Source: an uncultured Bacteroidota bacterium | Lineage (GTDB): Bacteria > Bacteroidota > Bacteroidia > Bacteroidales > VadinHA17 | Assembly (NCBI GenBank): GCA_903844815.1 | Contig: CAIMVD010000375.1 | Coordinates: 8,918 to 72,917, forward strand | DNA: 64,000 nt | Reading direction: 5' to 3' | Shown: positions 3,901 through 19,741 of the stretch, piece by piece | How positions within the stretch are numbered: position 1 is the stretch's first letter | How the letters are laid out: each line of letters opens with the position of its first letter | The notes under the pieces: generated by a model | What the model saw: the letters and a program-made list of their open reading frames with translations, nothing else | Databases searched by the model: none | Told to the model about the DNA's origin: nothing | Made by a program: the position numbers and the translations under genes

Positions 3901-6900
3901 CAACCACTGAAGCTGTTGGTGAAGCAATAAACTCCATTGTAACCTGGGCGGAACCTGGTGTGCAGATTCCGTTTGAAATGGTCCACTGGTAAACATAGGT
4001 GCCATAGACTGAAGCTGTAGCTGTTGCTGTTCCAACAGAAGGCAGACTGAAAACTGTAGTTCCGGGGCCTGATACCTGAGTCCATAATCCCGATCCGGTG
4101 ACTGGCGAATTTCCTCCCAGAGAAGAACTGATGAGCGTTCCGCATGATGACAGGGATGAGAAAGCAACAGAAGCGGGTGTCGGAGTATCCGAATAATTAA
4201 CTGTAACCTCTGCTGTTCCGGGAACACAATCACCGGTAGTTATCGTCCACCTGTATATATAAGTCCCGTATTGTGATGCCGTGGCTGTTGAACTGCCCGA
4301 TGAAGGAGTACTGAATATTGTAGTTCCCGGTCCTGAAACCTGGCTCCATATTCCGGTTCCTGTAGCAGGTGTATTTCCTCCGAGAGAACCGCTGGTGAGT
4401 GTTGCACAGAAGTTGAGAGGAAAAACAGCAATAGTCGCATCAGTTGTTGCCGGATTAAATTCCACTGCCACTTCTGCATTCGTAGAAGTACATGTCCCGC
4501 CGGATACTGTCCACTGATAAACATAAGTACCATAAACTGTTGCTGTGGCTGTCGAAGAACCTGACGCGGGGTCACTGAACACGGTTGTCCCCGGCCCTGA
4601 TACCTGGCTCCACAATCCGGCTCCTGGTCCGGGCGAGTTGCCGCCAAGCGAAAGGCTCGTAAGCGTACCGCAGAAACTGAGAGTTGGATCTGCAACAGCT
4701 GCGGAAGGATAATAATTTACCGTCACATCAGATACAGATGGCGCACAGGTACTGTAAGTTACAGTCCACCTGAAAATATATGTCCCCGGCTGGGTCACTG
4801 TGGCAGTTGAATTGCCTGAAGCCTGATCGCTGAAAGATGAAGTACCGGGTCCTGAAACCTGGCTCCAGATTCCTGCTCCCATAGCAGGCGTATTTCCTCC
4901 CAACGGTCCGGATATCAGGACATTACAGTAATTTAAGGGGCTAACTGCAATTGTTGAAACCGGTGCAGCCGTAACAGTAACGGAAGTGAAGGCAGAAGCC
5001 GCCAGGCATCCGCCGGCTGCAGGTATGAAATATGTTACCACATATACCCCGGGAGTACTTGTTGACGGTGTGATATCTCCCGTCAACGGACTAACAGACA
5101 ATCCGGGATCTGAGGTAAAACTACCGCCGAAATAGGTTCCGGTACCGCTTATGTTTACATGCTGTATATTGCTGTCGGTTGAACAGAACGGAGATCCGGA
5201 ATATGATATTGTGACCGTCGGCGCAGAGGTAACCGTAAGAATAACACTGTTCGATTTACTGCAACCCGAAACCGTATTTGTTTCAACCAGGGTATAGGTA
5301 GTAGTTACCAAAGGCGACACTTCCGGATTCGATAGTGCTGAAGTGAAGCCTGCAGGCACTGAAGTCCATGAGTAGGTGCTTCCCGCAACAGCCGCCGTGC
5401 CCAGGGTTGCCGGAGATCCTGCACATACCGATCTGTCTGTACCGGCTGCAGCAGCAGGCAAAGTATTAACTGTAATGGCTATTGTTCTTGCAGCGCTTGT
5501 GCCACAGGCATTTGAAGCAGTTACTGAAAGAACCCCGCTTGTAGCGGCAGGTCCAAAATCAATAGTCACGGAATTTCCTGTACCATTAATAGTGTGCCCT
5601 GTCCCTGTGTAATTCCAGTTATAAGTGCTGCCTCCCACTGCAGGAACAGTATATACATTACCCGATGAACCCTGGCAAACCTGAGTCGGAGCCGACATGA
5701 AATTCGAAGGCATGGCCGCCTCAACCGGGAATGAAATAACTACATCGTCTGAAGAATTGCAGGTAACATTACTTATAGTCCAGCGAAGGGTATAGGATTT
5801 GCCAAGTATTCCCGTGAAGTAGGTGTTATACCTGGTATTGTCGATGAATGTGCCTCCGGGGCCACTGACCTTGGTCCAGAGTCCAGAATACGGAGCGGCG
5901 GAATTTCCTGAAAGGGTAAGGCCCGATACGCCGCAGATAGACCTGTCGGCACCTGCATTGGCTACTGTCGGTAATGCATAAGCATTAACTACCCTACTGT
6001 CAACTACTCCGGCATGTGTACCGTTATTATAGGCAAACCCTGTAAGCTTATAAGCTCCCGGAACAGGTGTTGGTAATATATACAAAGGCGAAGTCACTGT
6101 AATTTGAGCCTGAGGAACTCCGTCGATTGAATAATTGAGGGTATAATTCAGACTTATATCCATGAATGAAGTGAACGATACCGGAATTCCGGCTGTTCCG
6201 CATACAGGTTTTGGTGAGGTGAACGAAGCCCGTGCTTCCGGAATTGTCACAGTAGCTGTTGTGAAATTTGAAGGAGTACTTGAAATTGCTACTCCGGTGG
6301 TAGAGGATACATAACCATTATCCAGATCACCTGTTGCCAGAGAAGGAAGTTCGTTCCATGCTCCGGAAATAAACTCTGCCACTCTCATGTCGTCGAGACC
6401 GTTTGGAACCATAAGAGGTGTCAGGGCACTGAGAGGATCCCATCCGATTTTCACTCTGCCTGAAGCTGCAACAGGAGTACTGACGCTCCAGAATTCCTGG
6501 GTGTTCGAGGCCTTGAGAGGGGATGCAAGCAATTTTGCGGTCGGGTTCGGGATGAAACATTCAACTGTCCATGCCATGGTGCTTCCCGCCGATGAAATTA
6601 CCGAGAAATCATGACCCTTGATAATTCCGTTTCCAACCGGAAATACAAAACTGCCTCCATTAATAATGTTTTTTACCAATGGCCCGTCAACGAACGAATC
6701 CTCGCTACCGCCCGCCGGTAAAACTGCCGAGGAAGATGTACTTAACATAACCAGCCTGTTGGTTGCAGTTGTATGTATTATACCACTGGTTAACAGGAGT
6801 TGCCCGTTTACTTCCACGAATCCGTTGGTTCCGATATTCAATCCTGAAGGATTCTTTATCTCAAGGTTGTTTAACTTGTTTGTTCCCGAAAAATCACCCG

Positions 6901-9900
6901 TTGCACCTCCAATAACCTGAGTTGTTGTTCCTGCAAAAATGACAGTCGATGCCGGACTAAATCCCAATCCGCTGTTAAACTCACCTGTGTTATAACGCTC
7001 CATTGTTCCGAGTATTATCAGGCTGCTCCTGTTTACACTGTTGTCAAGCAAAGGCCCGTCTATTACAAGCCGTTTGCATACTGTCAGCAGCTTGTTGGGA
7101 AGTATTCTTGTTCCTGTTCCCGTAAACAAAATGTTGGGTACGCTGTTGAAAAGAGATTCAATTATTGTATACGTTCCTGATCCTCCGTATTCAATTGTTC
7201 CGTTACCAGAACAATCCGTGAAGGCAGAATAGTTACCACCCGGGAGATTTCCTCCTATCAGGTATATCGTTCCATCGCCGTCGACAACACCAAGGTTGTG
7301 ACTGAAATTCGAGGGGTCAACTACAAGCCTGTTATTAATAGTAGTTCCCAGTGAATAGATATTATTGATGTCTGTTGTAACTATATGATTAATTATAACA
7401 TTTGCGCCATTCGGGCCGCCGTCAGGGCAGGGAGGCGATGATCCGACAGGAATCCAAACTGTTTTATCCGACCAGTTGCCGTCTTTGATCGTAGTATAAG
7501 CAGGAACCTCTTCAGGTATTGCAGATCCCTTCCCGGCTGTATAATCACCGGTCAGGTTACTGACAGCTGAATTATTAAAGAGTATCTGGTGTGAAGTCTC
7601 ATTGACATTATCTGTTGCAGGTCCGGCAGGTGCTTCATACCAATAACTTCCCGGAAGGGCAAGTTTAGCGGCCACATAATCGGATTCAGTCCCTACTACA
7701 TCACCTGCCAGGTATTGCAACTGGATATCGCCATAGAATCCTGTTATGCCCGAACTTCTTATCTGCCAGTAATAGTTCAGTGCATTAAGCGGATCGGTTA
7801 TGCTTGAGTGCCTGCTATTTATTGGATTAACACCTATTGATCCTACTTCGTCACTTGCCAGAATATTGAAGCTGGCAGGTGTGTATTTACCTGATACGCC
7901 AATAGGGAAAACAAACGTCTGCGGCTCTGCTGTGAAGAATTTCACGAGGCCCAATCCGCTGATTACGCCATCGGACTTAATCATCTTCGAAACACTGAAT
8001 GGAGTACCTGTAATAAAACTCTTAGGACTGAGGGTCAATTGGAATTTGCCAATATCCAGAACGCCCAGGTTCATTGCCAGATCGCCCTGCAGACTTATGT
8101 CGCTGTTTACCCTTGCTCCGAATCCGTTATTTAGTTCAAGACGGCCAAATGCTCCCGAACCTGTTACCTGCTGCTGAGCAGAAGCACCGGAAAGGGATAT
8201 CCCGCTGCTTCCGGTATTAATATCGGTGCAGGAACCCTCATTTACCAGGTTGCCAAGGAGAGTTACCCTGTTCGAGCCAAGAACAAAGTTTCCCTGGCTG
8301 ACGGTAAGATTCCGGTTAACAGTGAAACTACCCTCCGTTGTCAGTGAATTGACCGGGGAGACGTTCAGATCAAAGAAGTTGGTTACCGAAGTTCCCTTTA
8401 TCGACTGGAATCCTCCGTTGAAAGTTGTAAGATTCGTACCGTAATTATATGATCCATAGTTTGTAAGATCCCCTTTGAGTGAGACATTCAGATTATTCGA
8501 ATTGAAGATACTGTTTATATTGCTCAGGGTAAGAGAACCATCGAGTACCAGAGGGCTAACCATCAGATTAACTGTAGCATCGCGTGTGGCAGCAGCTGTT
8601 TTACCAGTAATTGTAATATTATTCAGATTAATATTAGCATCGAGCGAATAGGTCTGAGGGGCATCAACTACAGCTTCACCTGCCGGAACGGGAGTGAAGA
8701 AAATTGTTCCTCCAGTGACCAGAGAGCTTGCAGGTCGCAGGTAAAGGTCACCGAAAGTTGTTCCTCCTCCCCTTACGATGGTTAGTGTACCTCCCGACAT
8801 ATTGAATGAGCTACCTGGGTTAAGTATTTCAAGCTTCGCCTTTGCAGGAAGATAATTATTACCGTTAATGATAACATTACCAGCCGACTGGATGTAGCTA
8901 AGAACTCCATTTGTGGTTGCTGCAGGCCTCCTGATCTGGCCGTTTACCATCAGTTTCCCTCCTCTTACTTCAATAGAAGAAGCGCCGCTACCGGTGTATT
9001 CAATGTCATTGTCATTGGCATTTGTACCTGATACCGCCCCGACATAAACGTTTCCGTTAACCAGGGTAAGCTTGCCTCCCAGGATCAGGTCGCCGTTATT
9101 ATTCGCCGAATTTCCTATCAGAATGTTTCTGTTGCCCGTATTGGACGGAAGATCGACATAGAGCCCTGCAGTTGCCGGAATTGTGAACGGAGTAATGGTT
9201 GATATTGTAAAATCCGTGCCAGGATTGACTCTCGTATACTTCAGTGTACCATTTTGAAGGGTCAGCCAGTTGTCAGCAGGAGTTGTAATTACACCAGACA
9301 TGTCAATAGTAAGAGTTGATGCCTGAGATGATCCCTTGTTAACGGTCAGCTTACTGAAGATGATAGAAGGATTGCCTCCGGTATTTGTAACAGAGGCGTT
9401 ATTCGGCCCGAAGAATGTTACCGGGATTACAGAGAAATCGCACTGCGCAATTATCTGATAGGCTGGAGGATTCAACAAACCATTCGAATTATTTATCAGA
9501 CTTCCGCCAATTGAGATCTGCTGATTAAAGGAATTGGAATTAAAAGTTCCTATTCCGGAGAAGGTCCCTACTACAAGGTTACCAAATACAACTATATCCT
9601 CGGCAAGAGTACCATTTCCTACCCAGATTAGCGAACCGCCCTGCATCAGAAGGTCTCCTTTTATTGTAATTGTTTTTGCAATAACTGTGCTCGGTATTGT
9701 AGGATAGTCATTTTCCCAGGTAGGACAGAACCAGGAGTCTGTATTCTGGCCCCTGATAACGAGGTTACCATAAATAGTAAGATTATGATTGGGGAAAATA
9801 ATGTTTGATCCTCCCAATGGAGAAAGAATCAGATTACCATAAGTCATTACCCCGTTCGGCAGCCAGTAGGTTGTGCCGTACTCTGTATTAGTTGAATAAA

Positions 9901-12900
9901 GTTCTGTTGTACCCAGATTTATATTGAAATCAGAGAAGTCGCCTGAGGGGAACTGGAAAGTACTTCCTGTAGTCCACGAAGTAGCAACCCTGAAGTTCCC
10001 GTTTCCGTTTGGATGAGTGAGTACCATTCCAAAGTTTGAACCCGGGTTAAAACCTGCATCCAGCACGGAACCTTTTTCAATCTGAAGGCTAGCACAACTG
10101 CGGGCATCGGTATTTGCTACTGTATTTGCAGTGGCAAGGTAGACAGAATCCCTTCCTCCTATTATCACAATATCGCTGGCACCCGGAATAGTTAAAGCAG
10201 CTGCTCCTGAATGTTTATTAACAGCATCGGTCGACCAGGTTGCAGGGCTGCTCCAAAGCCCGCTTCCCACTCCAGTGCCATTAATCCTGCTATAATAAAT
10301 TGAAGGTACCCCAAACGGACTTAGAGGGGTGTCGTCACCGGCAGTATAGTCGCCATCAATCACCAGAGAGTTTTCAAGAAATGTACCTGCACCCGGTTCG
10401 CCGATGATCTTATTTACCTCATCAACATCGTTAATGGTTCCTTTAGCCCAGGTATTGGTAGGAATATCAAACCTGGCTGCCACATATCCATCCTCGGTAA
10501 TGTTGGCACCTGTAACCACATTCGACTGGGAAAAAGTATAACCATGGGTTACTGTTGCCGTTCCAAGGCTGAAGCCTGAGGATTTTGTCCTCCAGAAATA
10601 GGTGAGCGATCTGCCTGGTTGTGTTACATTGGGATGTCCGAAATTTACAGGGATAACGGTTATTGAACCATAAGAAGCAGGTACTCCGTTAAGGCCAACC
10701 GAAGCAGGAGTGTAATTGACAACCCCAACAGGAAAATTGAATGCACCCGGAGCAGCATACACTTTGGTAAGTCCTCCGTCTCCCGTGTTTCCTGAAGTCT
10801 GAAGATATCTCGAGGCAAAGAGACCATTACTGCTTGCTATTGAAGCATCCTGGCTGAGTTTTAAATTAAAAGTTCCGATATTGAAAAGCTTATCGGTCAG
10901 AAATGTGAGTGCTCCGTTTAAGGTCATGTTTGCGGCCAGTGATACGGGAGCAGCACCTGCAGATGTATTGTTCAGATCAACATTTCCGAATGATCCTTCA
11001 CCGCTGATCTGCTGGGGTACTATGCCGTTTAAGGATATTTTTCCTGTTCCGCTGTGTATGCCGGAGTTAAAAACGTCTCTTAAAACATTTATAGTATTCC
11101 CGTTATCTTTCAGATTACCAAGCACAAGCCGGAAATTATCATTAACCGTTATTGTTTTCTGTGTCCCGGCAAATTCAAGGCTTTTTCCTGCCGGTTTGTC
11201 GATAGTAAATTTGTTAAGTGCAAGCGGGGCAGCAAGATTTACTGTAAAGATCTGATCGAGCTTACCGTTCAGAATAGTTGTATTGGTTCCTGTATTGTAA
11301 CTTGTCCCGGCTGCAATTGTAAAATTACCACCGACACTCAGGTCAAGGTTATTGCAGGTCAGCACACCTGATGTCAGGTTAAGGTTTTTGAGAACTATTA
11401 ATGGGTTAGTGCTGAGCTGAACGGTTCTTGTTCCGCTAAGCCTGCTGATCAGCAGGTTGCCAAGAGGAGAAGTACTGTTTACAAGGTAATCGCCATCGGT
11501 AGCAGGTACTGAACCTGTTACAGGAATAATCTCAATTGTACCACCTGTAACATTTATATTGGCAGCTGAAGATTTTACGTCGAAAGCTTTCTGTTCGCCG
11601 GCAGCCGATCCGCAGACATCAAATATGCGGATTGTTCCGCCTGACATTGCAAAAATATTTGTTGTATTTTCAAGGTTGAATGTCCCGAAAGCAGGATTTA
11701 CGCCATTGGCAGCACGAAGAGTATTAAGTGTGGCAATTGATATATCCCTCAGGCTTGGAATCGAACTATAATCCGTCGGCGTTCTCTGGAAACGTCCTCG
11801 AAGTACCAGCGTCCCGTCTGTTTGGGTGTACTGGGCTGCAGAACCTGAAGTCGAAAGGAATTGCTTGGTATCGATGGTTCCTCCGTCAACGAGAATCTGT
11901 CCCGATCCAACACTGGAGGTTATTATTCCTGCCGACTCGCGGGTTGAAAAATAGCCATCGATTATATGCAATTTCCCATATACTTCTATAGCACTGCTTC
12001 CTCCAAGGGTAATTCCCATTGAAGCATTATCAGGAGCTGTAACTGTGTAAGCGGTATTTACCTCCCTGAAATCGTCCGATGTAGAGAATACAATGGCATC
12101 TACCCCATTTAGCATAAGGGCTCCGTTTGAAGGAATATAGTAATCAGAATTTGGCGATCCTGCCGTAACTCCCTCCGAAAGTGAAGGAATAATGACCGAG
12201 CCTTCAAGAATCAGGCTCCCGGTGCGTATCCACAAGGCCTTCCTCAGGTTGGCATTACTGCCTGCTACTTCACCGGTCAGGGTATTTGCTCCAAACAGCC
12301 TGAAATTCTTATAGTCGGTTGAATAAACCGTAAGTTTGTAGGTCTGGTCAAGTCCCTTATCGAGAACAAGATTATAAAAATCAGTAATCCCGTTACAGGT
12401 TATCGTATTGTCAGTTTCACCCTGGAAGTACACTGATGCCGCCCCGGAGGTTGCACCGTTTAGCACAGGAGGGAAGGCACTATAAACAGGGTATTGAAGA
12501 TTTGTAAATCTAACTGTGCCGTTATTTGTAAAATCTCCTTTTATGATAACCGTATGAAAATAAGTGTAGTAGTTGATAAAAGGAGCCGTTCCTCCTGCAG
12601 TAACTCCTCCTATTGCAGGATTAGTAACTCCTGTTCCGACAGAAACGGAAGCACCTGCATCAACAGTAACTCCTCCGCTTATGGTAAGGCTGAGTTTCGC
12701 AGTTGAAGCATTGTCATTTATACGGAATGATCCCGATTTGACGTAGAGATCACCATTCAGCAAAAGGTTTCCAAGCTGTGTAGCAATAGCGGTATTTGTA
12801 TTGATTTTAAGATTATTATATACCGTTTGGCTCACAGGAAGTACAAACGCAGATGCGTTGTAATACTCGGTTGTGCCACCTCCCGGATTTATGAATGTAT

Positions 12901-15334
12901 TTACCGTAATAGCCGGGAAATTAACAGAAGCAAGCTGCAAAGTACCTTGTCCGCGCAATGCCGCCAGCGTATTTGTAAACCTGTTTACGACCTGGTTCAG
13001 AAAACCTCCGGATTCAATTGTAATATCGAGCCCGTCGGAAGTAATGTCACTTGAAAGCGAGACAGTGCGTCCTGAAAGAATGACAACCTTATCATTCAAA
13101 CCTGGAACAGTGTTACCAATCTGAAGGGTTCCGCTCGGGTCCGAAGTCCAGGTATTCGGCGTATTCCAGTCACCTGTCTGGTATGAATAAAATGTGACCG
13201 AAGCCGCAGCTGTCCAGTAAGTACTGCCTGTAGTAATATTCGTTGTCCCGGCAATAGTGAAGGAGTTCCCCCCGAAGCTGGCTGTCCCTGATGGAACCAG
13301 CCAGTTTCCTGTCACCGGCTTGTACCAGATATTTGCCGGAGCATTGCTTATCTCTGCCGGATCATAGTTGAAGGTTGCTGTAATTGTTTTACCCGCAACC
13401 GAGGTGCTGACATCCCAGTATTTCTGCACAAAATTCGATGCTGCTGACACATCCCTGACTGAAAGTACCTTAATGGTTCCTGTTGTTCCACCAGAGATGG
13501 CAGTGATACTTACGGGAGAATAGTAACTTCCACCTCCGACAGGGAATAAAATTGGCAGTGTAGCGGCAGCATTACGAACAAGACCTCCGGTTCCGTCGGT
13601 TTCAATCATGGCGTTTGCGCTGAAGGCTCCCTGTATTGCATTAGAAGCGTTATTGCTGATTGTCAGAGCCGATGAACCCAGACGAAAGGAACCGGCATTA
13701 AGAGTAAGGATATTGCTAACCGTCGAATTCCCCTGTAGTGACTTAGCGCCTCCGCCTGAAAATGCAAGGTTCTGATACGCTGCGGAACCGAAGACCTGCT
13801 GGTCTCCGCTCCTGTTATAGTTAACTGTACTTAAAGCGCCGGTCGTGTTAAAAGTTGAAATTGCATTGGCAACTCCGCCCAGATTAAGCAGGTGAGCCCT
13901 GCCCGCATCACTGTTCATTGTGATGGTGCCGGTTACGTTTATCAGGTCGCCAGTGAGATTAAGTATCTTAGGGGTTAATGTGCCGAAATCCAGAATGCCA
14001 TCAACCGTTGTGTTGCCTGCAATGTTTATTGTCGTTGCGAAATTTCCCAGGCTCAGGGTTGTAGCATCGTTGATAACAAGATTATTGATGACACTAAAAT
14101 TTTTATGTATTGTTTTTGTAAAATTGCCGTCGGTTGTAAGGTTATAAAATGTTACCAACCCGGTCCCTGCTATATTGGATACTGATTGTACCGACCCTGT
14201 AAATGCAAAAGTCCCTGAAGTCGCCTTGAACGGATCAGCTGTTGTACTTGTAATCTGAAAAGTAATTCCGCTGAAGCTGATATCAGCGGAGGCCAGAACA
14301 GAGGCTGGAGTTGTAATAAACAGATCTCCGCTTAGTAGGAAGGGTGAGGTTCCGCTTAATGGCTGGCCCGGATTTGTTGAGAATGTGATCGATCCCGTAC
14401 CTGTCTTTGAAAATGTTCCGTTGTTTACTATACCTCCCCTGAATTCGTAGACAGGATTGGCGCTGTTAATAAATTGTCCGTTGCTGTTTACGGTAATAAG
14501 CTGGTCGAACCGGTTCAGTCCGGCATCGTTATCGTCGTTTAGAGTGCCGAAGGCGTTTAAGTTTGTTGTTCCGTTGACGGTAAGGTTAAAACCGGCCGGA
14601 TTAATTGTGTATAAATTCGTTGCAGTGGAACCTGCAACTGATAAATTACCCTGAACAGTAACGGCGCCTGTAAAGGAAGAAGTTACAGGTACAGTTAACA
14701 GCGGACAGTTTATTGTAAGGTTTCCGAAAGCCTGATTGAAACCCGTTGGTGCTATTCCTGTAACCCCGGTAATAATACAATTCGACGTTGCAGCCCATGT
14801 TGCAGAAGGGACGACACCACCGTCCATGTAATGAATATAAGACGAACCGGCTAGGAAAGATAGTGCAGCAGGTGAAGTAATGATTCCGTTATTTACTATT
14901 GTACCGCTAGTTGCGAAAGCAGCAGACACTGTAATAGTATGACCTGTCAAGATCACAAGGTAATCTCCTGCTGATGGAGCTGCAGCAGCATCAGCGGTTC
15001 CCTGTTTGCTGAACGACGAACCAGTAGCTGAGATCAATGCACCATTCTGAAGGGTAAAGGAATTTGCATCAGTAACAGCAGCAACAATTCCGATGAAGCC
15101 ATTTGCAGAATCAAAAACAGCATCATTAACTGATATTGCTCCCGCGCCGGAATTTGTTCCTGTAGTACTTCCTGCGGAAATGGTTATGGTTCCTGTTCCC
15201 GGGACAAGATCGGTCCAGGTACTTGTTGCATTGAGGAAGCCCGAGGCCTTGCTAACCTTTTGTGCCAGGGAACTGGTTTCGGAAAAACAAAAAAACAACA
15301 CCATTAATGCTGATATTGTTATTGTTTTCATCAT
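920..15334 (-). CDS. Giant (~4800 aa) T9SS-secreted surface adhesin, SprB-like
   Basis: One uninterrupted ORF, 920..15490 (4856 aa). I moved the start to the ATGATG at 15334 because MMKTITISALMVLFFCFSETSSLAQK is a signal peptide and the 52 upstream codons do not look like protein. The body is G/T/S/N-rich and beta-helix-like. The C-terminal part has PKD/Ig-like domains, SprB repeats and a type B CTD. Confidence 0.92.
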   Translation of the reverse strand: MMKTITISALMVLFFCFSETSSLAQKVSKASGFLNATSTWTDLVPGTGTITISAGSTTGTNSGAGAISVNDAVFDSANGFIGIVAAVTDANSFTLQNGALISATGSSFSKQGTADAAAAPSAGDYLVILTGHTITVSAAFATSGTIVNNGIITSPAALSFLAGSSYIHYMDGGVVPSATWAATSNCIITGVTGIAPTGFNQAFGNLTINCPLLTVPVTSSFTGAVTVQGNLSVAGSTATNLYTINPAGFNLTVNGTTNLNAFGTLNDDNDAGLNRFDQLITVNSNGQFINSANPVYEFRGGIVNNGTFSKTGTGSITFSTNPGQPLSGTSPFLLSGDLFITTPASVLASADISFSGITFQITSTTADPFKATSGTFAFTGSVQSVSNIAGTGLVTFYNLTTDGNFTKTIHKNFSVINNLVINDATTLSLGNFATTINIAGNTTVDGILDFGTLTPKILNLTGDLINVTGTITMNSDAGRAHLLNLGGVANAISTFNTTGALSTVNYNRSGDQQVFGSAAYQNLAFSGGGAKSLQGNSTVSNILTLNAGSFRLGSSALTISNNASNAIQGAFSANAMIETDGTGGLVRNAAATLPILFPVGGGSYYSPVSITAISGGTTGTIKVLSVRDVSAASNFVQKYWDVSTSVAGKTITATFNYDPAEISNAPANIWYKPVTGNWLVPSGTASFGGNSFTIAGTTNITTGSTYWTAAASVTFYSYQTGDWNTPNTWTSDPSGTLQIGNTVPGLNDKVVILSGRTVSLSSDITSDGLDITIESGGFLNQVVNRFTNTLAALRGQGTLQLASVNFPAITVNTFINPGGGTTEYYNASAFVLPVSQTVYNNLKINTNTAIATQLGNLLLNGDLYVKSGSFRINDNASTAKLSLTISGGVTVDAGASVSVGTGVTNPAIGGVTAGGTAPFINYYTYFHTVIIKGDFTNNGTVRFTNLQYPVYSAFPPVLNGATSGAASVYFQGETDNTITCNGITDFYNLVLDKGLDQTYKLTVYSTDYKNFRLFGANTLTGEVAGSNANLRKALWIRTGSLILEGSVIIPSLSEGVTAGSPNSDYYIPSNGALMLNGVDAIVFSTSDDFREVNTAYTVTAPDNASMGITLGGSSAIEVYGKLHIIDGYFSTRESAGIITSSVGSGQILVDGGTIDTKQFLSTSGSAAQYTQTDGTLVLRGRFQRTPTDYSSIPSLRDISIATLNTLRAANGVNPAFGTFNLENTTNIFAMSGGTIRIFDVCGSAAGEQKAFDVKSSAANINVTGGTIEIIPVTGSVPATDGDYLVNSTSPLGNLLISRLSGTRTVQLSTNPLIVLKNLNLTSGVLTCNNLDLSVGGNFTIAAGTSYNTGTNTTILNGKLDQIFTVNLAAPLALNKFTIDKPAGKSLEFAGTQKTITVNDNFRLVLGNLKDNGNTINVLRDVFNSGIHSGTGKISLNGIVPQQISGEGSFGNVDLNNTSAGAAPVSLAANMTLNGALTFLTDKLFNIGTFNLKLSQDASIASSNGLFASRYLQTSGNTGDGGLTKVYAAPGAFNFPVGVVNYTPASVGLNGVPASYGSITVIPVNFGHPNVTQPGRSLTYFWRTKSSGFSLGTATVTHGYTFSQSNVVTGANITEDGYVAARFDIPTNTWAKGTINDVDEVNKIIGEPGAGTFLENSLVIDGDYTAGDDTPLSPFGVPSIYYSRINGTGVGSGLWSSPATWSTDAVNKHSGAAALTIPGASDIVIIGGRDSVYLATANTVANTDARSCASLQIEKGSVLDAGFNPGSNFGMVLTHPNGNGNFRVATSWTTGSTFQFPSGDFSDFNINLGTTELYSTNTEYGTTYWLPNGVMTYGNLILSPLGGSNIIFPNHNLTIYGNLVIRGQNTDSWFCPTWENDYPTIPSTVIAKTITIKGDLLMQGGSLIWVGNGTLAEDIVVFGNLVVGTFSGIGTFNSNSFNQQISIGGSLINNSNGLLNPPAYQIIAQCDFSVIPVTFFGPNNASVTNTGGNPSIIFSKLTVNKGSSQASTLTIDMSGVITTPADNWLTLQNGTLKYTRVNPGTDFTISTITPFTIPATAGLYVDLPSNTGNRNILIGNSANNNGDLILGGKLTLVNGNVYVGAVSGTNANDNDIEYTGSGASSIEVRGGKLMVNGQIRRPAATTNGVLSYIQSAGNVIINGNNYLPAKAKLEILNPGSSFNMSGGTLTIVRGGGTTFGDLYLRPASSLVTGGTIFFTPVPAGEAVVDAPQTYSLDANINLNNITITGKTAAATRDATVNLMVSPLVLDGSLTLSNINSIFNSNNLNVSLKGDLTNYGSYNYGTNLTTFNGGFQSIKGTSVTNFFDLNVSPVNSLTTEGSFTVNRNLTVSQGNFVLGSNRVTLLGNLVNEGSCTDINTGSSGISLSGASAQQQVTGSGAFGRLELNNGFGARVNSDISLQGDLAMNLGVLDIGKFQLTLSPKSFITGTPFSVSKMIKSDGVISGLGLVKFFTAEPQTFVFPIGVSGKYTPASFNILASDEVGSIGVNPINSRHSSITDPLNALNYYWQIRSSGITGFYGDIQLQYLAGDVVGTESDYVAAKLALPGSYWYEAPAGPATDNVNETSHQILFNNSAVSNLTGDYTAGKGSAIPEEVPAYTTIKDGNWSDKTVWIPVGSSPPCPDGGPNGANVIINHIVTTDINNIYSLGTTINNRLVVDPSNFSHNLGVVDGDGTIYLIGGNLPGGNYSAFTDCSGNGTIEYGGSGTYTIIESLFNSVPNILFTGTGTRILPNKLLTVCKRLVIDGPLLDNSVNRSSLIILGTMERYNTGEFNSGLGFSPASTVIFAGTTTQVIGGATGDFSGTNKLNNLEIKNPSGLNIGTNGFVEVNGQLLLTSGIIHTTATNRLVMLSTSSSAVLPAGGSEDSFVDGPLVKNIINGGSFVFPVGNGIIKGHDFSVISSAGSTMAWTVECFIPNPTAKLLASPLKASNTQEFWSVSTPVAASGRVKIGWDPLSALTPLMVPNGLDDMRVAEFISGAWNELPSLATGDLDNGYVSSTTGVAISSTPSNFTTATVTIPEARASFTSPKPVCGTAGIPVSFTSFMDISLNYTLNYSIDGVPQAQITVTSPLYILPTPVPGAYKLTGFAYNNGTHAGVVDSRVVNAYALPTVANAGADRSICGVSGLTLSGNSAAPYSGLWTKVSGPGGTFIDNTRYNTYFTGILGKSYTLRWTISNVTCNSSDDVVISFPVEAAMPSNFMSAPTQVCQGSSGNVYTVPAVGGSTYNWNYTGTGHTINGTGNSVTIDFGPAATSGVLSVTASNACGTSAARTIAITVNTLPAAAAGTDRSVCAGSPATLGTAAVAGSTYSWTSVPAGFTSALSNPEVSPLVTTTYTLVETNTVSGCSKSNSVILTVTSAPTVTISYSGSPFCSTDSNIQHVNISGTGTYFGGSFTSDPGLSVSPLTGDITPSTSTPGVYVVTYFIPAAGGCLAASAFTSVTVTAAPVSTIAVSPLNYCNVLISGPLGGNTPAMGAGIWSQVSGPGTSSFSDQASGNSTATVTQPGTYIFRWTVTYSTCAPSVSDVTVNYYPSAAVADPTLSFCGTLTSLSLGGNSPGPGAGLWSQVSGPGTTVFSDPASGSSTATATVYGTYVYQWTVSGGTCTSTNAEVAVEFNPATTDATIAVFPLNFCATLTSGSLGGNTPATGTGIWSQVSGPGTTIFSTPSSGSSTATASQYGTYIYRWTITTGDCVPGTAEVTVNYSDTPTPASVAFSSLSSCGTLISSSLGGNSPVTGSGLWTQVSGPGTTVFSLPSVGTATATASVYGTYVYQWTISNGICTPGSAQVTMEFIASPTASVVAVSPLNYCGTLSSGPLGGNNPSVGTGLWSQVSGPGTTSFSAQTSGSSTAIATVYGTYVYQWTITNGTCSPSSSQVTVNYSETPSTASVTSALLNNCGTLVSGSLGGNTPVAGSGSWSQVSGPGTTIYSSSVSGASTATASLYGTYVYEWTITSGTCSPSSAQVTVNYYELPTTASVAATVLNQCGTLVSGSLGGNNPVTGTGTWSKISGPGTTVFSEPASGSSTATASVYGAYVYSWTISSGTCTASSAQVAVNYYETPTTAVINTTPLSFCGTKVSEPLGGNSPVSGTGTWSIFSGGTGTFSSSVSGNSTFTADAYGSYFLRWTISNGSCSASTADINVIFGETTTVANAGPDQTGSEMCGITSATLAANIAVTGNGLWTIVSGSGGAITAPLNPASVFTGTTGVLYTLRWTISNSYCTPSVDEMNVIFHQNPVAAYTKTDILCNGLATGAIDITLTGGTTPYTYTWTGAGTVPDAGDQTGLRAGVYGVTVTDANSCKVSIASITVSEPALLTGTIVSQTNASIFGNNDGSVTVSGSGGVPAYLYKIGSEAYQSSGVFGSLKAGNYTITVQDNNLCTSLIDVNITQPDVSLIAAIVSKNEAQCFGTATGSVTIAGSGGVIPYKYKLGTGNYQLSGTFSGLAAGSYVITVMDAVFSATDVTVDISQPDNAVSVALVSQVNVLCFGSSTGSITVEGAGGMPPYKYRTGGGEYQVSSTFSKLSAGVYTVTIQDSNLCTSTIDLTVTQPAAKLAGSITSQANAACFGSSNGTVTVAGSGGASPYSYSVNGGALQADGTFTGLAASVYTVTVTDASLCTANISVTIGQPDAISVSHTEESATCPGDKDGSITLSVTGGTVPYNAIWSDGLTGLTRTGIGEGTYSAVVTDKNGCAGSAVAEVGVTGTQNCLEVLEVITPNNDGVNDTWKIRNIDLFPKAEVFVYNRWGELVYTSKNLLSDPWDGTYKGKQLATDSYHYVLYLHDGTDPKSGVISIIRK
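923..1189 (-). other. Type B (gliding-motility-associated) T9SS C-terminal sorting domain of the giant adhesin
   Basis: The last 89 aa read CLEVLEVITPNNDGVNDTWKIRNIDLFPKAEVFVYNRWGELVYTSKNLLSDPWDGTYKGKQLATDSYHYVLYLHDGTDPKSGVISIIRK. The (I/F)TPNGDG.ND...I, V.I.NRWG..V and W.G hallmarks are present. Confidence 0.85.
1190..2608 (-). repeat. Six tandem SprB repeats (~72-80 aa each) inside the adhesin gene
   Basis: A recurring block C(N/F)G...G(S/A)(I/V)T(V/I)..(S/T)GG..PY.Y......Q.S..F..L.AG.Y.(V/I)TV.D.N.C appears six times between QNPVAAYTKTDILCNGL and GVTGTQN. Coordinates come from counting 473 aa back from the CTD. Confidence 0.8.
2609..4963 (-). repeat. Nine tandem ~88-aa PKD/Ig-like domain repeats (264-bp DNA period) inside the adhesin gene
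   Basis: Protein consensus: ..L..CGTL.SG.LGGN.P..G.G.WSQVSGPGTT.FS...SGSSTATA..YGTY.Y.WTI..G.C......V.VNY. The DNA core cc.gg.cctga.acctg.ctcca recurs near 3270, 3534, 3797, 4061, 4325, 4588 and 4845. Confidence 0.85.
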
Positions 15335-15790
15335 TGGGAAGATGACAGTTTTCCTTAGTTTCGCTATTCTGATACCGGGAAATGAAAAACGCTTCGCTTT
15401 GAAGAATAAAATCAAACTTAAGTCTGATTCCGGGTTAATATGTTCCATCTTGGTCAGGTTCGTTTCGTTAAAAAAAATGCAATCATTCAAAAATCAAACA
15501 TGAGAACAACAAATACCTGAAAGGATTTGCTGAAACTCATAGCTAAAAAAATAAGTTGTTATGCGAATTTAATAAATAAACATATATGTAACACAATAAT
15601 TATCATGAGTTTTCTCTATATTTTGACGACTTATAAACATTTGTCGGCTAACCATTCCCCTGCTTTGGTAAAAATAATCTTTTTTTATCGCATAATGAAA
15701 CAGGATGGCATTTAAGTTTAAACTTAAGCCCGGACACAGCAAGGGACTATCCTTTCTAAAGAGATTTTAAATAAATAATAAACGTTTTTT

Positions 15791-15831: not shown

Positions 15832-15906
15832 GGGGGTTTAGCTCAGCTGGTTCAGAGCATCTGCCTTACAAGCAGAGGGTCGGCGGTTCGAACCCGTCAA
15901 CCCCCA
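15832..15906 (+). tRNA. tRNA-Val (anticodon TAC), 75 nt, CCA not encoded
   Basis: Hand-folded cloverleaf: acceptor GGGGGTT/AACCCCC, D stem GCTC/GAGC, anticodon stem TCTGC/GCAGA with loop CTTACAA, T stem GGCGG/CCGTC with loop TTCGAAC, discriminator A. Confidence 0.92.
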
Positions 15907-15909
15907 CAA
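15860..15909 (+). repeat. Direct repeat copy 1 (attL-like): 3' 47 nt of tRNA-Val plus 3 nt
   Basis: tctgccttacaagcagagggtcggcggttcgaacccgtcaacccccacaa is identical (50/50) to 17647..17696. Confidence 0.9.
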
Positions 15910-15918
15910 ATGAATATC

Positions 15919-15960
15919 AAGCACTTACAATGGTAACACAGAGTAAGTGCTTTTTTATTT
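15919..15960 (+). terminator. Rho-independent terminator after the reconstituted tRNA-Val
   Basis: 10-bp stem aagcacttac / gtaagtgctt (15919..15928 and 15943..15952), followed by ttttttattt. Confidence 0.7.
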
Positions 15961-16007: not shown

Positions 16008-16469
16008 TTAAGCAATACTGTTATCTTGACCATCTTGAGAAATAGCATAAGCTATTTTAAGTTTTAATTCCTCAGAAAAATCATCTTCAGTCAGAATAGA
16101 TGTGATTATTTCATGAAGCAATTCCTTATCAATATTATTAGCAGCTACATGGTAACTGATAATTTCCATTCTATATAGAAACTCTTTGGCAGCATTGAGA
16201 TAACCATTTTTAAGCAGGAAAATGCTCCCCAGAGTAATGGCAATTCTTTTGTTGCCATCCTGAAAACAATGACTTTTATTAGCAACATAGAATAAGTGAG
16301 TTAGCTTATCTTCAAAGGCAGGGTAATAATCATCGTTCTGAATGTGATCAAGAGCTGCATTTAAGGAGTGTAGGTTTAGTATGCCAATGGTACCCCCTCC
16401 GCTTACCTCAATGGTTTTTTGATGCAGAGTAACTACCTCATTGATATCGTCTATGTACACTATTGGCAT
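16008..16469 (-). CDS. doc: Death-on-curing (Doc) family toxin, Fic-fold kinase
   Basis: 153 aa. The motif HCFQDGNKRIAI matches the Doc signature H.F.D(A/G)NKR (P1 Doc has HIFNDANKRTAL). The upstream stop and this start overlap by 1 nt (TAATG). Confidence 0.8.
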   Translation of the reverse strand: MPIVYIDDINEVVTLHQKTIEVSGGGTIGILNLHSLNAALDHIQNDDYYPAFEDKLTHLFYVANKSHCFQDGNKRIAITLGSIFLLKNGYLNAAKEFLYRMEIISYHVAANNIDKELLHEIITSILTEDDFSEELKLKIAYAISQDGQDNSIA

Positions 16470-17479
16470 TATTCACTCTCCTTTAATCGTTTGAAGACAT
16501 CCTCTGCTTCCTTTAATTGTTTTTCAAAGTCGACACTTCGATCTCCAATGAATTTATCAAAATCAGCAGGACGAACTGATGTGACGTATTCTTTTAACTT
16601 ATGGTGAAAAGCATCTCTGAAAAAATTATCCCTCGAAGCCATTTTTATTCGTGCATCTTCAATATGAGGTAACTGCGCGGGATGGTCTGTAAAGTCTTTA
16701 ACAATCTGGTCAACTTCAATAGGTAATAATTTGCGACCTAAGGCTTTTGATTTTTTTTCAATTTCGTAGGCAATGCCGGCCTCAAAAGAAGCTATAAGCT
16801 TCAAAACCTCTGCATACATTGTATCTCTTGCATTTTCATTATCTGCCAGTTTCAGGATTTGCTTGTACTCTTTGGCATTTTCACGGAAAATTGCCTGATA
16901 AATCTTGTCGGTATATAGAGAGTACTTATAATTACCGAGGTCAACATATTGATTAAGAGAATTCGTGAAATCTTTTCTGTATTTATGTTCCCTTATGGCG
17001 TTTATTAAATAATCCTCATCCCTGCGATTAATATATTTTGTGCCTCCTCCGGTTTTTTCGTTTATACTATGAATTACTATGTCGAGGATTTTACTTCTTA
17101 AATGACGAGCCTTTTCACTTTCGCTAAGTAACATGGATAAATTTAGTAAAGCCCTGAAATTGAATAACCCAAGCTGACGGGTTTTGCTCGCCTTATCAAT
17201 GAGGTGAGCAAATTGTAATTTAAAGTTTGTCAGCTGCTTACCTTTGGTTAAAACATATCCATTATGTTTTAATTCAGCTTCGTGTTTTGCAAGATACCGG
17301 TCAATGGTAGAGGTATCTATCTCAAAGAAATTGGCAACCATCTCTTTGGTAAAACGAAATTCACCTTCAAATAACATACCCGGCAAACCTATATACTCCT
17401 GAATTTGTGTTAGTGCGTAACGATTATTAAGTATGTTTTGCCGATCAATATCTGAGTTTGTCAGGTCTTTCATGGTCAT
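16469..17479 (-). CDS. 336-aa putative DNA-binding protein, candidate antitoxin/regulator partner of Doc
   Basis: It lies immediately upstream of doc and is translationally coupled to it. The N-terminal segment FTKEMVANFFEIDTSTIDRYLAKH looks like a helix-turn-helix. The rest is predicted to be helical. No catalytic motif was recognised. Confidence 0.55.
   Translation of the reverse strand: MTMKDLTNSDIDRQNILNNRYALTQIQEYIGLPGMLFEGEFRFTKEMVANFFEIDTSTIDRYLAKHEAELKHNGYVLTKGKQLTNFKLQFAHLIDKASKTRQLGLFNFRALLNLSMLLSESEKARHLRSKILDIVIHSINEKTGGGTKYINRRDEDYLINAIREHKYRKDFTNSLNQYVDLGNYKYSLYTDKIYQAIFRENAKEYKQILKLADNENARDTMYAEVLKLIASFEAGIAYEIEKKSKALGRKLLPIEVDQIVKDFTDHPAQLPHIEDARIKMASRDNFFRDAFHHKLKEYVTSVRPADFDKFIGDRSVDFEKQLKEAEDVFKRLKESE
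17184..17211. repeat. 28-bp imperfect palindrome, copy A (inside the 336-aa gene)
   Basis: ttgctcgccttatcaatgaggtgagcaa matches 17485..17512 at 24/28 positions. The outer arms TTGCTCgCC / GGtGAGCAA are inverted. Confidence 0.6.
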
Positions 17480-17484
17480 ATGAT

Positions 17485-17512
17485 TTTGTTCGCCTCACCG
17501 ATGAGGTGAGCA
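17485..17512. promoter_or_regulatory. 28-bp imperfect palindrome, copy B: candidate operator in the 5' leader of the Doc operon
   Basis: ttgttcgcctcaccgatgaggtgagcaa lies 6-33 nt upstream of the ATG at 17479. It contains the inner inverted repeat CTCACC-n5-GGTGAG. Confidence 0.4.
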
Positions 17513-17646
17513 AATTTTAAGTTTGTATATCAATTTAGTTGACTTAAGCTACAATGGTTTGTAATTCATGTAGTTTTATATTTCTGATTTACAACATCCT
17601 TACAAGATAATAAAATTTAAGTATAAATTATCAAAAGATGGCTAAT

Positions 17647-17696
17647 TCTGCCTTACAAGCAGAGGGTCGGCGGTTCGAACCCGTCAACCCCCACAA
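17647..17696 (+). repeat. Direct repeat copy 2 (attR-like): displaced 3' fragment of tRNA-Val
   Basis: 50/50 identity to 15860..15909. The preceding sequence (..aaaagatggctaat) has no acceptor or D-arm, so this is not a functional tRNA. Confidence 0.9.
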
Positions 17697-17701
17697 TAAA
17701 A

Positions 17702-17736
17702 AACCGGTCATCCCAAGTGGCCGGTTTTATTTTTTG
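17702..17736 (+). terminator. Rho-independent terminator, probably the ancestral tRNA-Val terminator
   Basis: 9-bp stem aaccggtca / tggccggtt (one G-T pair), 7-nt loop tcccaag, followed by ttattttttg. Confidence 0.7.
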
Positions 17737-17827
17737 CTTATCCCGGGAAAATTACTAATTTGCCGAAAGAATGGGTCAGTCAAAACTTCTTATCAAAATA
17801 ACCACATTAGAATATTAATTCTGCCAC

Positions 17828-19741
17828 ATGGAAAGAATGATTCGCCGTATTAAAACTTTTCTGCTGATATATTCAACCATATCATGTTCACTTATCGCCC
17901 TGGGCCAGCCTTCCGTAAAAACTGATTCTTTGTTGATACTGCTTGATAAAACAGAATCTGACACATCTAAAGTTAGTTTGCTTATCCAGCTCTCAGATTC
18001 ATGGATCTCAGATGACATAAAACTCTCTTTGGAATATATCCAGCGTGCCTTATCATTGGCTGAAAAAACCGGTAACACGAAAGTTATAGCGTCAACCCTG
18101 AACAGTATGGCGAAAGTTAGCTTAAGGGCAGGCCTTATCGATATCTCCGCCGATTATTTCAACCGTTACCTTGAAATGATCACAGATAATGGCTCAAAAA
18201 TGGAAATCGGCTATACTATGTTCAATCTGGGTTCAGTAAGGATGGTACTAAATGACTATGACAAGGCAGAGGAGATGTTCCTGAAATCATTTCAGATGAT
18301 AAAAGAATTCTATGCAGAAGCAAACGACTCCGTACCACCAACAGTTATTATAAATTTGTACAACAATCTTGGAATTATTCACAGGGAAAAGAGCCAGCTG
18401 GATGAATCTGTGCAATACCTCAACAACGGGATAAAAAGTGCACGAACAGGTATCGGGTTCGAGCCCGACCTGATTAGGTTGCTGATCAACCTGGGGGAAA
18501 CCCTGATCAAACAGAAAAAACTAAATGAGGCCACTCTGGCACTGAATGAAGCTCTGAGTATCGCCCGAAAAAACAATAACAAGGCGACAGAATCGGCTGT
18601 TTATCTGAGCCTTGGCAATCTGTCAGAAGAAAATGAAAACACAAAAGCAGCATTTGAGTATTACAGAACGGGGTACAGGCTGGCAATACAATTTGGTGAC
18701 GTATCTATGTTACAGGTGATTTCTTATCCCCTTGCTAAACTGTACAAAAAGACCGGGCAGGCTGATTCTTCTTTGAAGTATCTAACCCTGTCAAACGAAT
18801 ATCAGGAAAAACTGAATCTTGAAAAAGCAAAGGACAATCTTTTACGACAGGAGCTAAACGCACAATTCAGAGAGAGGGAACAAGTACTGGAGGCGCGGGA
18901 TAAAAACAGAAAGATATGGGAAATTCTCATATTGTTAATGATAATTGCAATTGCCCTGATATCATTCTATTTTACTTTTAAAAAACTAAGGAAAATCCAG
19001 GCTGATAAGGCCTATATTAAACAGAAGGCGCAGGAACTGAAAGAAATCATCGAGACTAAGGACAAGCTTTTTTCAATAATCGCGCATGATCTGAGGGGAC
19101 CAATAGGCAATTTCATCCCTGCACTGGAACTACTCACGAGTAACAACGCAATAGATGAGAACCTGAAAAAAAGGCTGCTCGCGGAGATGAAAAAAGACTC
19201 TAAAAACACATATAGCCTCCTTGATGATCTTTTAACCTGGGCAGGAATACACGGTAATTCTATTCAGATAACTCCCCAGAACTTTGTACTGAATGAGGCT
19301 CTGATTCAGAATGTTGTACTCCTAACACCAGGTGCCGATCAAAAATCAATCAGTATAAGCATTGAAACTACCGGAATAATAACAGTCTTTGCCGACAAAA
19401 ATACAATAAGTACTGTAGTCAGGAATTTATTGAGTAATGCGATCAAATTTACTCCCATGAATGGCAGCATAACTGTTTCTGCAAAACATAACAGCAGGTA
19501 TTGTGAAGTAACAATTGCTGACAGCGGAGTGGGAATGTCTAAGGAAATTGCTGATAACCTTCTGATATCCCGATCATATTATACCACTTTCGGCACGAAT
19601 GGTGAAAAAGGTTCCGGCCTTGGATTAGCAATATGCAGGGAATTTGTTGAAAAAAACGGAGGTGAGATCTGGCTTGAAAGTGAACAGGGAAAAGGCAGTA
19701 AATTTATCTTCACAATTCCGCTTGAAAAACAGAATATTTAA
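17828..19741 (+). CDS. TPR-repeat sensor histidine kinase
   Basis: 637 aa. Signal peptide (LLIYSTISCSLIALGQP), ~300 aa of TPR-like helical repeats, TM segment IWEILILLMIIAIALISFYFTF, HisKA box FSIIAHDLRGPIGN, and HATPase_c with G-box EKGSGLGLAICREFVEKNGGEIWLESEQGKGSKFIFTIP. Confidence 0.85.
   Translation: MERMIRRIKTFLLIYSTISCSLIALGQPSVKTDSLLILLDKTESDTSKVSLLIQLSDSWISDDIKLSLEYIQRALSLAEKTGNTKVIASTLNSMAKVSLRAGLIDISADYFNRYLEMITDNGSKMEIGYTMFNLGSVRMVLNDYDKAEEMFLKSFQMIKEFYAEANDSVPPTVIINLYNNLGIIHREKSQLDESVQYLNNGIKSARTGIGFEPDLIRLLINLGETLIKQKKLNEATLALNEALSIARKNNNKATESAVYLSLGNLSEENENTKAAFEYYRTGYRLAIQFGDVSMLQVISYPLAKLYKKTGQADSSLKYLTLSNEYQEKLNLEKAKDNLLRQELNAQFREREQVLEARDKNRKIWEILILLMIIAIALISFYFTFKKLRKIQADKAYIKQKAQELKEIIETKDKLFSIIAHDLRGPIGNFIPALELLTSNNAIDENLKKRLLAEMKKDSKNTYSLLDDLLTWAGIHGNSIQITPQNFVLNEALIQNVVLLTPGADQKSISISIETTGIITVFADKNTISTVVRNLLSNAIKFTPMNGSITVSAKHNSRYCEVTIADSGVGMSKEIADNLLISRSYYTTFGTNGEKGSGLGLAICREFVEKNGGEIWLESEQGKGSKFIFTIPLEKQNI

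Follow-up and report, generated by a model that had tools for sequence, protein, structure and literature searches.

A 64,000-nucleotide stretch of DNA from an uncultured Bacteroidota bacterium of the VadinHA17 lineage (GenBank assembly GCA_903844815.1, contig CAIMVD010000375.1, positions 8,918 to 72,917; hereafter the window) carries a Doc-family toxin gene paired with the gene of a large upstream partner. The pair is probably a two-gene cassette of the type II toxin–antitoxin kind, made up of a modular antitoxin and regulator, the Doc toxin and a portable palindrome. The partner, a protein of 336 residues encoded upstream of Doc, is referred to as A; L-numbers denote related loci and P-numbers proteins. 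Canonical Doc toxins are neutralised by Phd-type antitoxins of about 70 residues and phosphorylate EF-Tu. A first-pass annotation of the window had suggested that here a large partner may combine antitoxin, DNA-binding and sensing functions, with ties to restriction-modification (R-M) operons and placement on a mobile islet. That reading appears largely right, and its antitoxin part is now backed by sequence comparison: the C-terminal motif of A recurs in mini open reading frames (mini-ORFs) that occupy the antitoxin position of sister Docs. The present analysis adds this link between the tail of A and mini-antitoxins, together with the assignment of A, by homology, to the Bro-N/ORF6N class. 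A large Doc antitoxin with a Phd-C tail is a concept already described (PanA_Phd-C, PMC10440598).

The two genes lie exactly at the coordinates given by the first-pass annotation, which had also identified the coupling TAATG (Table 1). The junction reads GAA-TAATG-CCA, a 1-nt overlap in which the last A of the TAA stop codon is the first A of the Doc ATG. Antitoxin-first bicistronic order combined with gene overlap is the layout of type II toxin–antitoxin systems, and it is found here. Homologues of A begin with MKDL, so the real start of A is probably M3, giving a protein of 334 residues.

A and Doc occur together far more often than chance would allow: of the 80 genome loci retrieved with the A profile, 78 have Doc as the gene immediately after A. 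A scan of IMG/VR with a Doc profile gave 27 loci with a Doc at least 38% identical to that of the window, and A lies immediately upstream of Doc in 24 of the 26 that have upstream sequence. A stays intact at several loci where Doc has decayed or been lost (L036, L057 and L081-86), as expected if Doc is the toxin. At L081-L086, the loci of protein P0020, A stands beside a 53-residue Doc remnant amid other toxin–antitoxin and Abi genes, a cluster that holds two SocA/Panacea-domain genes, HTH_3 and AbiEii.

The tail of A is its probable link to neutralisation of Doc. Five tail residues are invariant (D306, F307, F310, G312 and R331), and the predicted local distance difference test score (pLDDT) of the tail is below 50. 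Conservation combined with low pLDDT is expected for a segment that folds on a partner. Loci that lack A, namely the exceptions among the 26 IMG/VR loci and two more distant ones, have an ORF of 42-70 residues that ends directly before Doc. The C-termini of these mini-ORFs read …NVFIRLRDK (L115), …EVFIRLKDK (L116), …GVFDRLKDK (L122) and …DVLKRLSDK (L124), while A-family proteins end in …EDVFKRLKESE in the window and in …DVFKRLKDR or …DVLKRLKDK elsewhere. A tail motif, [DE]V[FL]xRLK, is common to A and the mini-ORFs of all four loci. The L115 mini-ORF has in addition a segment, DFDNLLSDSS, that parallels DFDKFIGDRS in A. Classical Phd/YefM partners, found upstream of more distant Docs, end in …TIKALADR.

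A profile hidden Markov model (HMM) of the last 45 residues of A was searched against the 1,445 ORFs of the IMG/VR Doc loci. After the A proteins themselves, the four mini-ORFs rank 1st, 2nd, 4th and 7th among distinct ORFs, and all four align at their extreme C-terminus. Several points weigh against this link. Single-match statistics are weak because the motif is short (tail-HMM E-values of 0.0071, 0.046, 0.17 and 2.5), and hhalign comparisons of the tail with mini-ORFs give E 0.0074 and 0.27 over a short similarity. The rank enrichment of the mini-ORFs, however, is not plausibly due to chance. From the shared motif we infer that the tail of A is the Doc-neutralising element and plays the part of Phd-C. 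In the PanA_Phd-C:Doc system, the C-terminal Phd-C element fused to SUMO suffices to neutralise Doc (PMC10440598).

The toxin itself is, on its profile matches and motif, a Doc-type Fic protein. The 153-residue ORF with HCFQDGNKR that the first-pass annotation took for Doc scores above the curated cut-offs of both TIGR01550 DOC_P1 (46.5 bits against 38.65, E 3.7e-12) and Pfam Fic (34.6 bits against 24, E 3.6e-8). It also matches PADLOC PDC-M59B (E 4.8e-42), PHROG 577 ('Doc-like toxin') and the PDB entries 3K33 and 9VZC. HCFQDGNKR spans Doc residues 67-75 (window 16245-16271) and aligns opposite HIFNDANKR of P1 Doc (3K33). The motif fits the kinase-type HxFx(D/N)(A/G)NKR, in which K replaces the second G of the Fic motif, and H67, F69, D71, G72, N73, K74 and R75 are invariant across 14 Doc partners of the A family. 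The same 14 partners have a conserved acidic C-terminal extension of about 30 residues in which S124 and K136 are invariant. The window Doc has 153 residues and P1 Doc (3K33_A) 126, and the latter presumably lacks the acidic extension. The extension somewhat resembles the inhibitory helix at the C-terminus of class III Fic proteins, but the S-x-x-x-E spacing is not universal among the partners.

The globular part of A is harder to place. Window A has no Pfam or NCBIfam match at E <= 1, including no Phd/YefM domain, and PDB sequence and profile searches with A returned nothing significant. The AlphaFold2 (AF2) model has a mean pLDDT of 63.5. It is confident at residues ~40-140, where a winged helix-turn-helix (HTH)-like alpha/beta unit is predicted with pLDDT 80-90 and the order beta-alpha-alpha-beta-alpha-beta-alpha; it is poor at residues 143-166, 268-286 and 298-336. 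No PDB fold matches the model at E <= 0.001, and only weak MarR-, GntR- and DdrC-like winged-HTH matches appear. Homologues are more informative: 9 of 26 diverse A homologues match Pfam ORF6N (best E 1.2e-5), and several match HTH families. The A profile aligns over residues 39-230 with a Bro-N protein encoded near the pair elsewhere (hhalign probability 84%, E 7.6e-6). The middle region matches PADLOC PDC-S13 (E 4.3e-6) and PHROG 2657 (E 1.3e-5). On these homologue matches and profile alignments A is tentatively classed as a distant Bro-N/ORF6N-type DNA-binding protein, and not as RhuM or Phd/YefM. Two points count against the assignment: no Pfam DNA-binding family matches window A itself in the Pfam scan, and the model is mediocre and has no significant fold match.

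Two other families were considered and rejected. A has no match to PF13310, the Virulence_RhuM domain that a true RhuM neighbour matches at 8.7e-108, and hhalign to RhuM gives E 0.07 over only 40 N-terminal columns. Membership in Phd/YefM fails because A lacks the PhdYeFM_antitox fold and has 334-336 residues against about 70-90. The HTH-like N-terminal segment and the large, non-Phd character that the first-pass annotation ascribed to the partner are thus borne out, DNA binding is supported by homology, and to the family question it raised profile alignment answers probably Bro-N-like. E. coli DinD presumably shares the architecture of Bro-N plus middle region. The 639-residue protein P0127 has a C-5 cytosine DNA methyltransferase (Dcm; Pfam E 3.7e-31) fused N-terminally to a full-length A domain, a domain-level link of the family to DNA modification.

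A palindrome of 28-30 nt, TTTGSTC-N16-GASCAAA, lies within the A gene and again upstream of it; TTGSTC-N16-GASCAA matches only these two sites in the window. The repeated segments, 17182-17221 inside A and 17484-17523 upstream, are 85% identical, and the upstream copy also repeats the preceding TTAnAATTTG. In virtually all homologues the intragenic copy sits at nt 262, counted from the MKDL start; it is kept in Streptococcus (TTGCTACCGACACAAATGTCGGTAGCAA), Ilyobacter and IMG/VR members of 44-60% identity. A palindrome of the TTGCTC type precedes the start by 40-55 nt in about 18 other loci; subfamilies that lack this type carry different palindromes there. A cross-phylum intragenic palindrome of this kind was not found described in the literature.

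The symmetry of the intragenic site is conserved and its sequence is not. IMG/VR arms differ as greatly as ATGGTACCGACATCGATGTCGGTACCAT (14/14 pairs) and TTGTTCAGGAAGTTAACTTCCCTAACAA, and the encoded peptides vary too (FAHLIDKASK, FGHLINKTTK, FAPDINVGSK and VQEVNFPNK). Among 48 distinct sequences, 80.7% of cells are paired compared with 70.6% after shuffling, a level reached in 0/500 shuffles. Double-sided changes number 60 against 29 in shuffled data (again 0/500 as high), and slid controls pair at most 59%. When codons were resampled synonymously with the peptide fixed, 10.8 of 14 pairs were observed against 6.75 expected (p <= 0.05 in 93% of sequences). In the flanking codons, Phe is always TTT and Lys is AAA in 78/79 cases, and the Leu codon before the site is TTR in 74/74 compared with 55% gene-wide. 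Compensation even crosses the genetic code: FA…SK (GCTC/GAGC) alternates with FG…TK (GGTC/GACC). Selection for the symmetry thus acts on the nucleic acid, and the symmetry in turn shapes a loop of the protein.

The palindrome is most simply read as the operator of A itself, a working hypothesis against which an RNA or single-stranded DNA (ssDNA) hairpin fits at least as well. It may instead be a nucleic-acid hairpin, acting as an antisense terminator or insulator, an mRNA processing or stability element or an ssDNA structure, or else a recombination site. This family of alternatives is a serious one, even if we lean away from it. Conserved symmetry with changing sequence is what a hairpin predicts, but a co-evolving dimeric regulator predicts it as well. 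A·C predominates among the mismatches of the sense strand (99, with 31 G·T); since A·C would become G·U on the antisense strand, that strand forms the more stable fold (-18 to -18.8 kcal/mol, the sense strand reaching -11 to -12.6). Two positions bound to His and Ala/Thr codons, however, supply most of the A·C bias, which is also correlated with phylogeny. A consensus scan flags both copies, with their U-rich tails, as terminator-like for transcription running against A; they fold at -18 kcal/mol (z about -5), and the invariant TTR of the preceding Leu keeps the antisense tail U-rich. Against this, no antisense promoter is conserved: a canonical -7 box, TACCTTTG (+ strand, ~17240-17247), is not conserved in the family, which leaves the antisense-RNA idea without promoter support. 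As for recombination, flanking bases are duplicated along with the upstream copy, which is what recombination would leave, but the coding sequence of an essential antitoxin would be an unusual home for a 28-nt recombination site. A Xer/dif-like site, suggested by the 28-nt size, is unlikely, since subfamilies do not share the sequence.

The A family is large and recurs in defence contexts. Window A matches PADLOC PDC-M59A over its full length (E 1.7e-139), and 6,412 homologues at E <= 1e-3, forming 1,308 clusters at 50% identity, are mostly unnamed or labelled 'DNA-binding protein'. Novelty is lower than the first-pass annotation implied: the pair matches PDC-M59A and PDC-M59B, and RefSeq already names such pairs. 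PDC systems derive from genes embedded in R-M, BREX and DISARM loci (Payne et al., bioRxiv 10.1101/2024.01.29.577857). Table S8 of that work lists the three-gene arrangement FAM_01085>>FAM_00079>>FAM_00939 as PDC-M59, with 46 instances. No mention of PDC-M59 by name was found in the literature. In loci related to the window pair, none of ten ORFs downstream of or next to Doc matches PDC-M59, PDC-M59C (the third gene) included. The window islet holds two ORFs only; it lacks the third gene, FAM_00939, and is not embedded in an R-M, BREX or DISARM operon.

Similar pairs do occur inside R-M operons, as the first-pass annotation had stated for type I systems. The neighbourhood survey it called for places R-M genes in or beside about 21 of the 80 loci, often in the order HsdM/HsdS > A > Doc > HsdR, and finds others next to Abi or prokaryotic Argonaute (pAgo) genes or in satellite prophages. 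On an Ilyobacter megaplasmid, a type III mod-res pair precedes A and Doc, which RefSeq names 'DNA-binding protein' and 'type II toxin-antitoxin system death-on-curing family toxin'. Genes right after Doc match HsdS, AbiU, AbiLi/AbiLii and pAgo models. In the closest relative (L001, A 93% identical), a full-length pAgo (1525-3570, PADLOC E 4e-268) starts 7 nt past Doc. Streptococcus satellite prophages (Javan742 and relatives) carry A > Doc > integrase. In Javan742 itself (L093, 4001-6719), and in pneumococcal and S. mitis elements, this trio lies at one element end, and Javan742-type records label A 'CiaB protein', which is misleading, and Doc 'hypothetical protein'. IMG/VR holds at least 24 further A–Doc pairs.

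These contexts raise the possibility that the cassette is primarily an anti-phage abortive-infection system, in which A would act as the sensor and keep Doc in check until a phage cue (a phage protein, phage DNA or host shut-off) releases it. The first-pass annotation had pointed to sensing and to modules of the abortive-infection type; evidence of neither emerged. This role is compatible with toxin–antitoxin mechanics and differs in biological purpose; we regard it as rather unlikely to be the primary one. The PDC-M59A/B matches, the R-M, Abi and pAgo neighbours, and the homologue fused to a Dcm methylase speak for it, and Bro-N/KilA-N-type domains are generally known to be common in proteins of phage–host conflict. 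The two-gene cassette, FAM_01085>>FAM_00079 with 414 instances, was, however, marked 'Reject' in the guilt-by-embedding curation (Payne et al. Table S8, bioRxiv 10.1101/2024.01.29.577857). In addition, about 75% of loci have no recognisable R-M gene within 6 kb, and the window copy lies outside any defence island, its neighbours being a tRNA, a giant adhesin-like surface protein and histidine kinase/signalling genes. For the pairs on satellite prophages, addiction or superinfection roles are equally plausible. No experimental study of any A–Doc family member was found in the literature, which also weighs against a firm assignment. A more ambitious version joins both themes: the palindrome, as operator of A or as a structured RNA switch, would give promoter-independent feedback while A senses phage, yielding a portable abortive-infection module. 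This too is a tentative proposal that we would not expect to hold as a whole.

The islet on which the pair stands alone, as the first-pass annotation had noted, is bounded by tRNA-Val direct repeats of 50 nt that are 100% identical and spaced 1,787 bp apart, the size of the islet. It holds A, Doc and short flanks only; no integrase was called among its ORFs. Homology with the closest relatives is confined to 17521..16021, that is, both genes plus about 40 nt upstream, and in the 80 related genome loci the pair is never found beside a tRNA-Val. This limited homology and the lack of another tRNA-Val locus therefore point to a lineage-specific insertion by an integrase-type event, with the integrase either lost or acting in trans. 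An empty site, with tRNA-Val joined to the right flank, had 0 matches in metagenome contigs, and an exact-protein look-up of the neighbouring histidine kinase found only one contig, which breaks inside A. The hairpin between the tRNA and the Doc stop codon may terminate transcription of the tRNA on one strand and of doc on the opposite one; the consensus terminator scan did not flag it, its loop being too long for that scan. The terminator-like hairpin beyond the islet is probably the original tRNA-Val terminator.

It is improbable that the window pair has lost its function and only marks an island that integrated at a tRNA and then decayed. The islet does have att-like repeats and no integrase, while the pair adjoins an integrase in satellite prophages and an integrase fragment in L025. 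Both ORFs are nevertheless full length, no family-invariant residue and no part of the Doc motif has been lost, and the gene overlap survives together with both palindromes; the still identical repeats point to a recent event. Even less probable is the view that A is no antitoxin and acts as an independent DNA-binding effector or regulator, with Doc controlled otherwise, for instance by its own C-terminal inhibitory helix: RhuM has been proposed as a toxin in Doc-like positions and RhuM–Doc fusions exist (Anantharaman et al., PMC3710099; PMC1626090), and the window Doc, longer than P1 Doc, has the conserved acidic extension with S124 and K136, but A is not RhuM, its tail motif returns in mini-ORFs that stand where an antitoxin would, A outlasts Doc at loci where Doc decays, and the S-x-x-x-E spacing is not kept in all Doc partners.

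Table 1. Features of the A–Doc cassette and its islet, in window coordinates
Feature	Position	Strand	Basis
Doc-family toxin gene, 153 aa	16008..16469	-	ORF call, TIGR01550, Pfam Fic, PADLOC PDC-M59B, PHROG 577
Doc C-terminal extension (…SILTEDDFSEELKLKI…), residues ~124-153	16008-16100	-	partner alignment
Protein A gene, 336 aa (probable start M3 at 17473)	16469..17479	-	ORF call, PADLOC PDC-M59A
A residues ~35-142, Bro-N/ORF6N-like (winged-HTH-like) putative DNA-binding domain	17054..17377	-	AF2, ORF6N matches, hhalign
A residues ~150-245, helical middle (…TDKIYQAIFRENAKEYKQILKL..NARDTMYAEVL…)	16745..17032	-	hhalign, PDC-S13, PHROG 2657
A residues ~300-336, conserved tail (PADFDKFIGDRS…EDVFKRLKESE)	16472..16582	-	alignment, tail-HMM search
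Intragenic palindrome TTTGCTCGCCTTATCAATGAGGTGAGCAAA, A codons F90-K99	17183..17212		repeat search, covariation
Second palindrome copy, 5-40 nt upstream of annotated A start	17485..17514		repeat search, 85% identical over 40 nt
Intact tRNA-Val (anticodon TAC), islet insertion target	15832..15907	+	ARAGORN
Direct repeat copy 1, tRNA-Val 3' half + 2 nt, attL-like	15860..15909	+	repeat search
Direct repeat copy 2, displaced partial tRNA-Val 3' half, attR-like	17647..17696	+	repeat search
Hairpin AGCACTTAC...GTAAGTGCT then TTTTTATTT, between tRNA and Doc stop	15920..15958		read from sequence
Terminator-like hairpin + T-run beyond islet	17700..17728	+	consensus scan

In several other genomes, too, A–Doc lies between direct repeats, generally copies of local sequence 40-200 nt long. 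What is duplicated differs by locus: the 5' portion of the next gene downstream in L031 (5846/7462), an intergenic or promoter region in L066 (~5750/7500), a tyrosine-recombinase gene end with its flank in L025 (~1-190/2190-2380) and a repetitive extragenic palindromic (REP)-like hairpin element in L008 (5380/7620); in L016 it measures 1,373 nt. The pattern points either to insertions that recurred and duplicated their targets or to recombination between the repeats. In L087-L092, which encode an identical A–Doc cassette (protein P0118), the cassette stands beside SusD, ABC ATPase or HU genes, and its flanks contain a dispersed repeat of about 220 nt that also breaks assemblies shortly after Doc. 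Within the window, a 71-residue ORF over the displaced tRNA copy (17638-17853), also called in a public assembly, is almost certainly spurious. On the far side of the tRNA, an ORF of 4,856 residues (920-15490, - strand) contains numerous Ig-like repeats and reaches to about 340 nt from tRNA-Val; its C-terminal segment presumably resembles the Bacteroidota type IX secretion sorting domain.

Five known systems or protein groups frame the cassette. Like Phd-Doc of phage P1, it has a toxin of the same family and motif and a tightly coupled upstream gene for the presumed antitoxin. A-family tail ends, …RLKD[KRS], also resemble the ends …TIKALADR of the classical Phd-type ORFs that precede more distant Docs. 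Unlike Phd-Doc, the partner has 334 residues rather than about 73 and no Phd/YefM domain, its putative DNA-binding domain is Bro-N/ORF6N-like, and Doc has the extra C-terminal extension. Neighbouring Bro-N-domain proteins are homologous to A in the N-terminal domain and middle helical region, but they have neither the Doc-linked tail nor a Doc partner.

The PanA_Phd-C:Doc system of Corynebacterium doosanense, in which Phd-C neutralises and the globular part is accessory and possibly sensory (Ernits et al. 2023, PMC10440598), combines a large multi-domain antitoxin with a short C-terminal neutraliser. The motifs of A suggest the same logic, although its globular part is not a Panacea/SocA domain. 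PDC-M59 is defined as three genes in R-M, BREX or DISARM loci, whereas the window pair, which matches its first two components, is two genes and not embedded. RhuM–Doc fusions and RhuM/Doc genes embedded in R-M loci have been described (PMC1626090, PMC3710099). These too have a large protein joined to or followed by Doc, no small antitoxin and frequent placement in R-M operons, and the single RhuM neighbour tested shows a weak, sub-threshold N-terminal Bro-N match. A differs in not belonging to the RhuM family and in being encoded by a gene separate from Doc.

In the cassette as we picture it, the TAATG overlap would couple translation of A and Doc. Doc, a predicted Fic-fold enzyme with the HxFxDGNKR motif, would phosphorylate EF-Tu by analogy with P1 Doc and so stop translation. 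The N-terminal domain of A would bind DNA, the helical middle domain would form a second module between this domain and the tail, and the last ~35 residues, unstructured alone, would dock on Doc and block it as Phd-C does, a role suggested by motif sharing. An intragenic operator copy would give the cassette a self-regulation that travels with it. The islet may be an addictive remnant of a larger integrated element or a mini-element moved by a trans-acting integrase. The role of the cassette is likely the stabilisation of mobile or defence DNA and possibly abortive-infection defence.

The tail comparison suggests a rule for Doc antitoxins, in which a short neutralising tail is joined to an interchangeable body, and it pinpoints about 35 residues as the candidate neutraliser. 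One of the commonest Doc lineages in Bacteroidota and beyond is partnered not by a tiny Phd but by a 334-residue putative DNA-binding protein, from a family of more than 6,000 members that recurs in R-M and defence loci and in satellite prophages. The palindrome is conserved at one codon position across Bacteroidota, Firmicutes, Fusobacteriota and others, a rare case of nucleic-acid structure dictating protein sequence, and it could explain context-free self-regulation. If this holds, the Doc cassette would work wherever it lands, whether in R-M operons, satellite prophages or tRNA islets.

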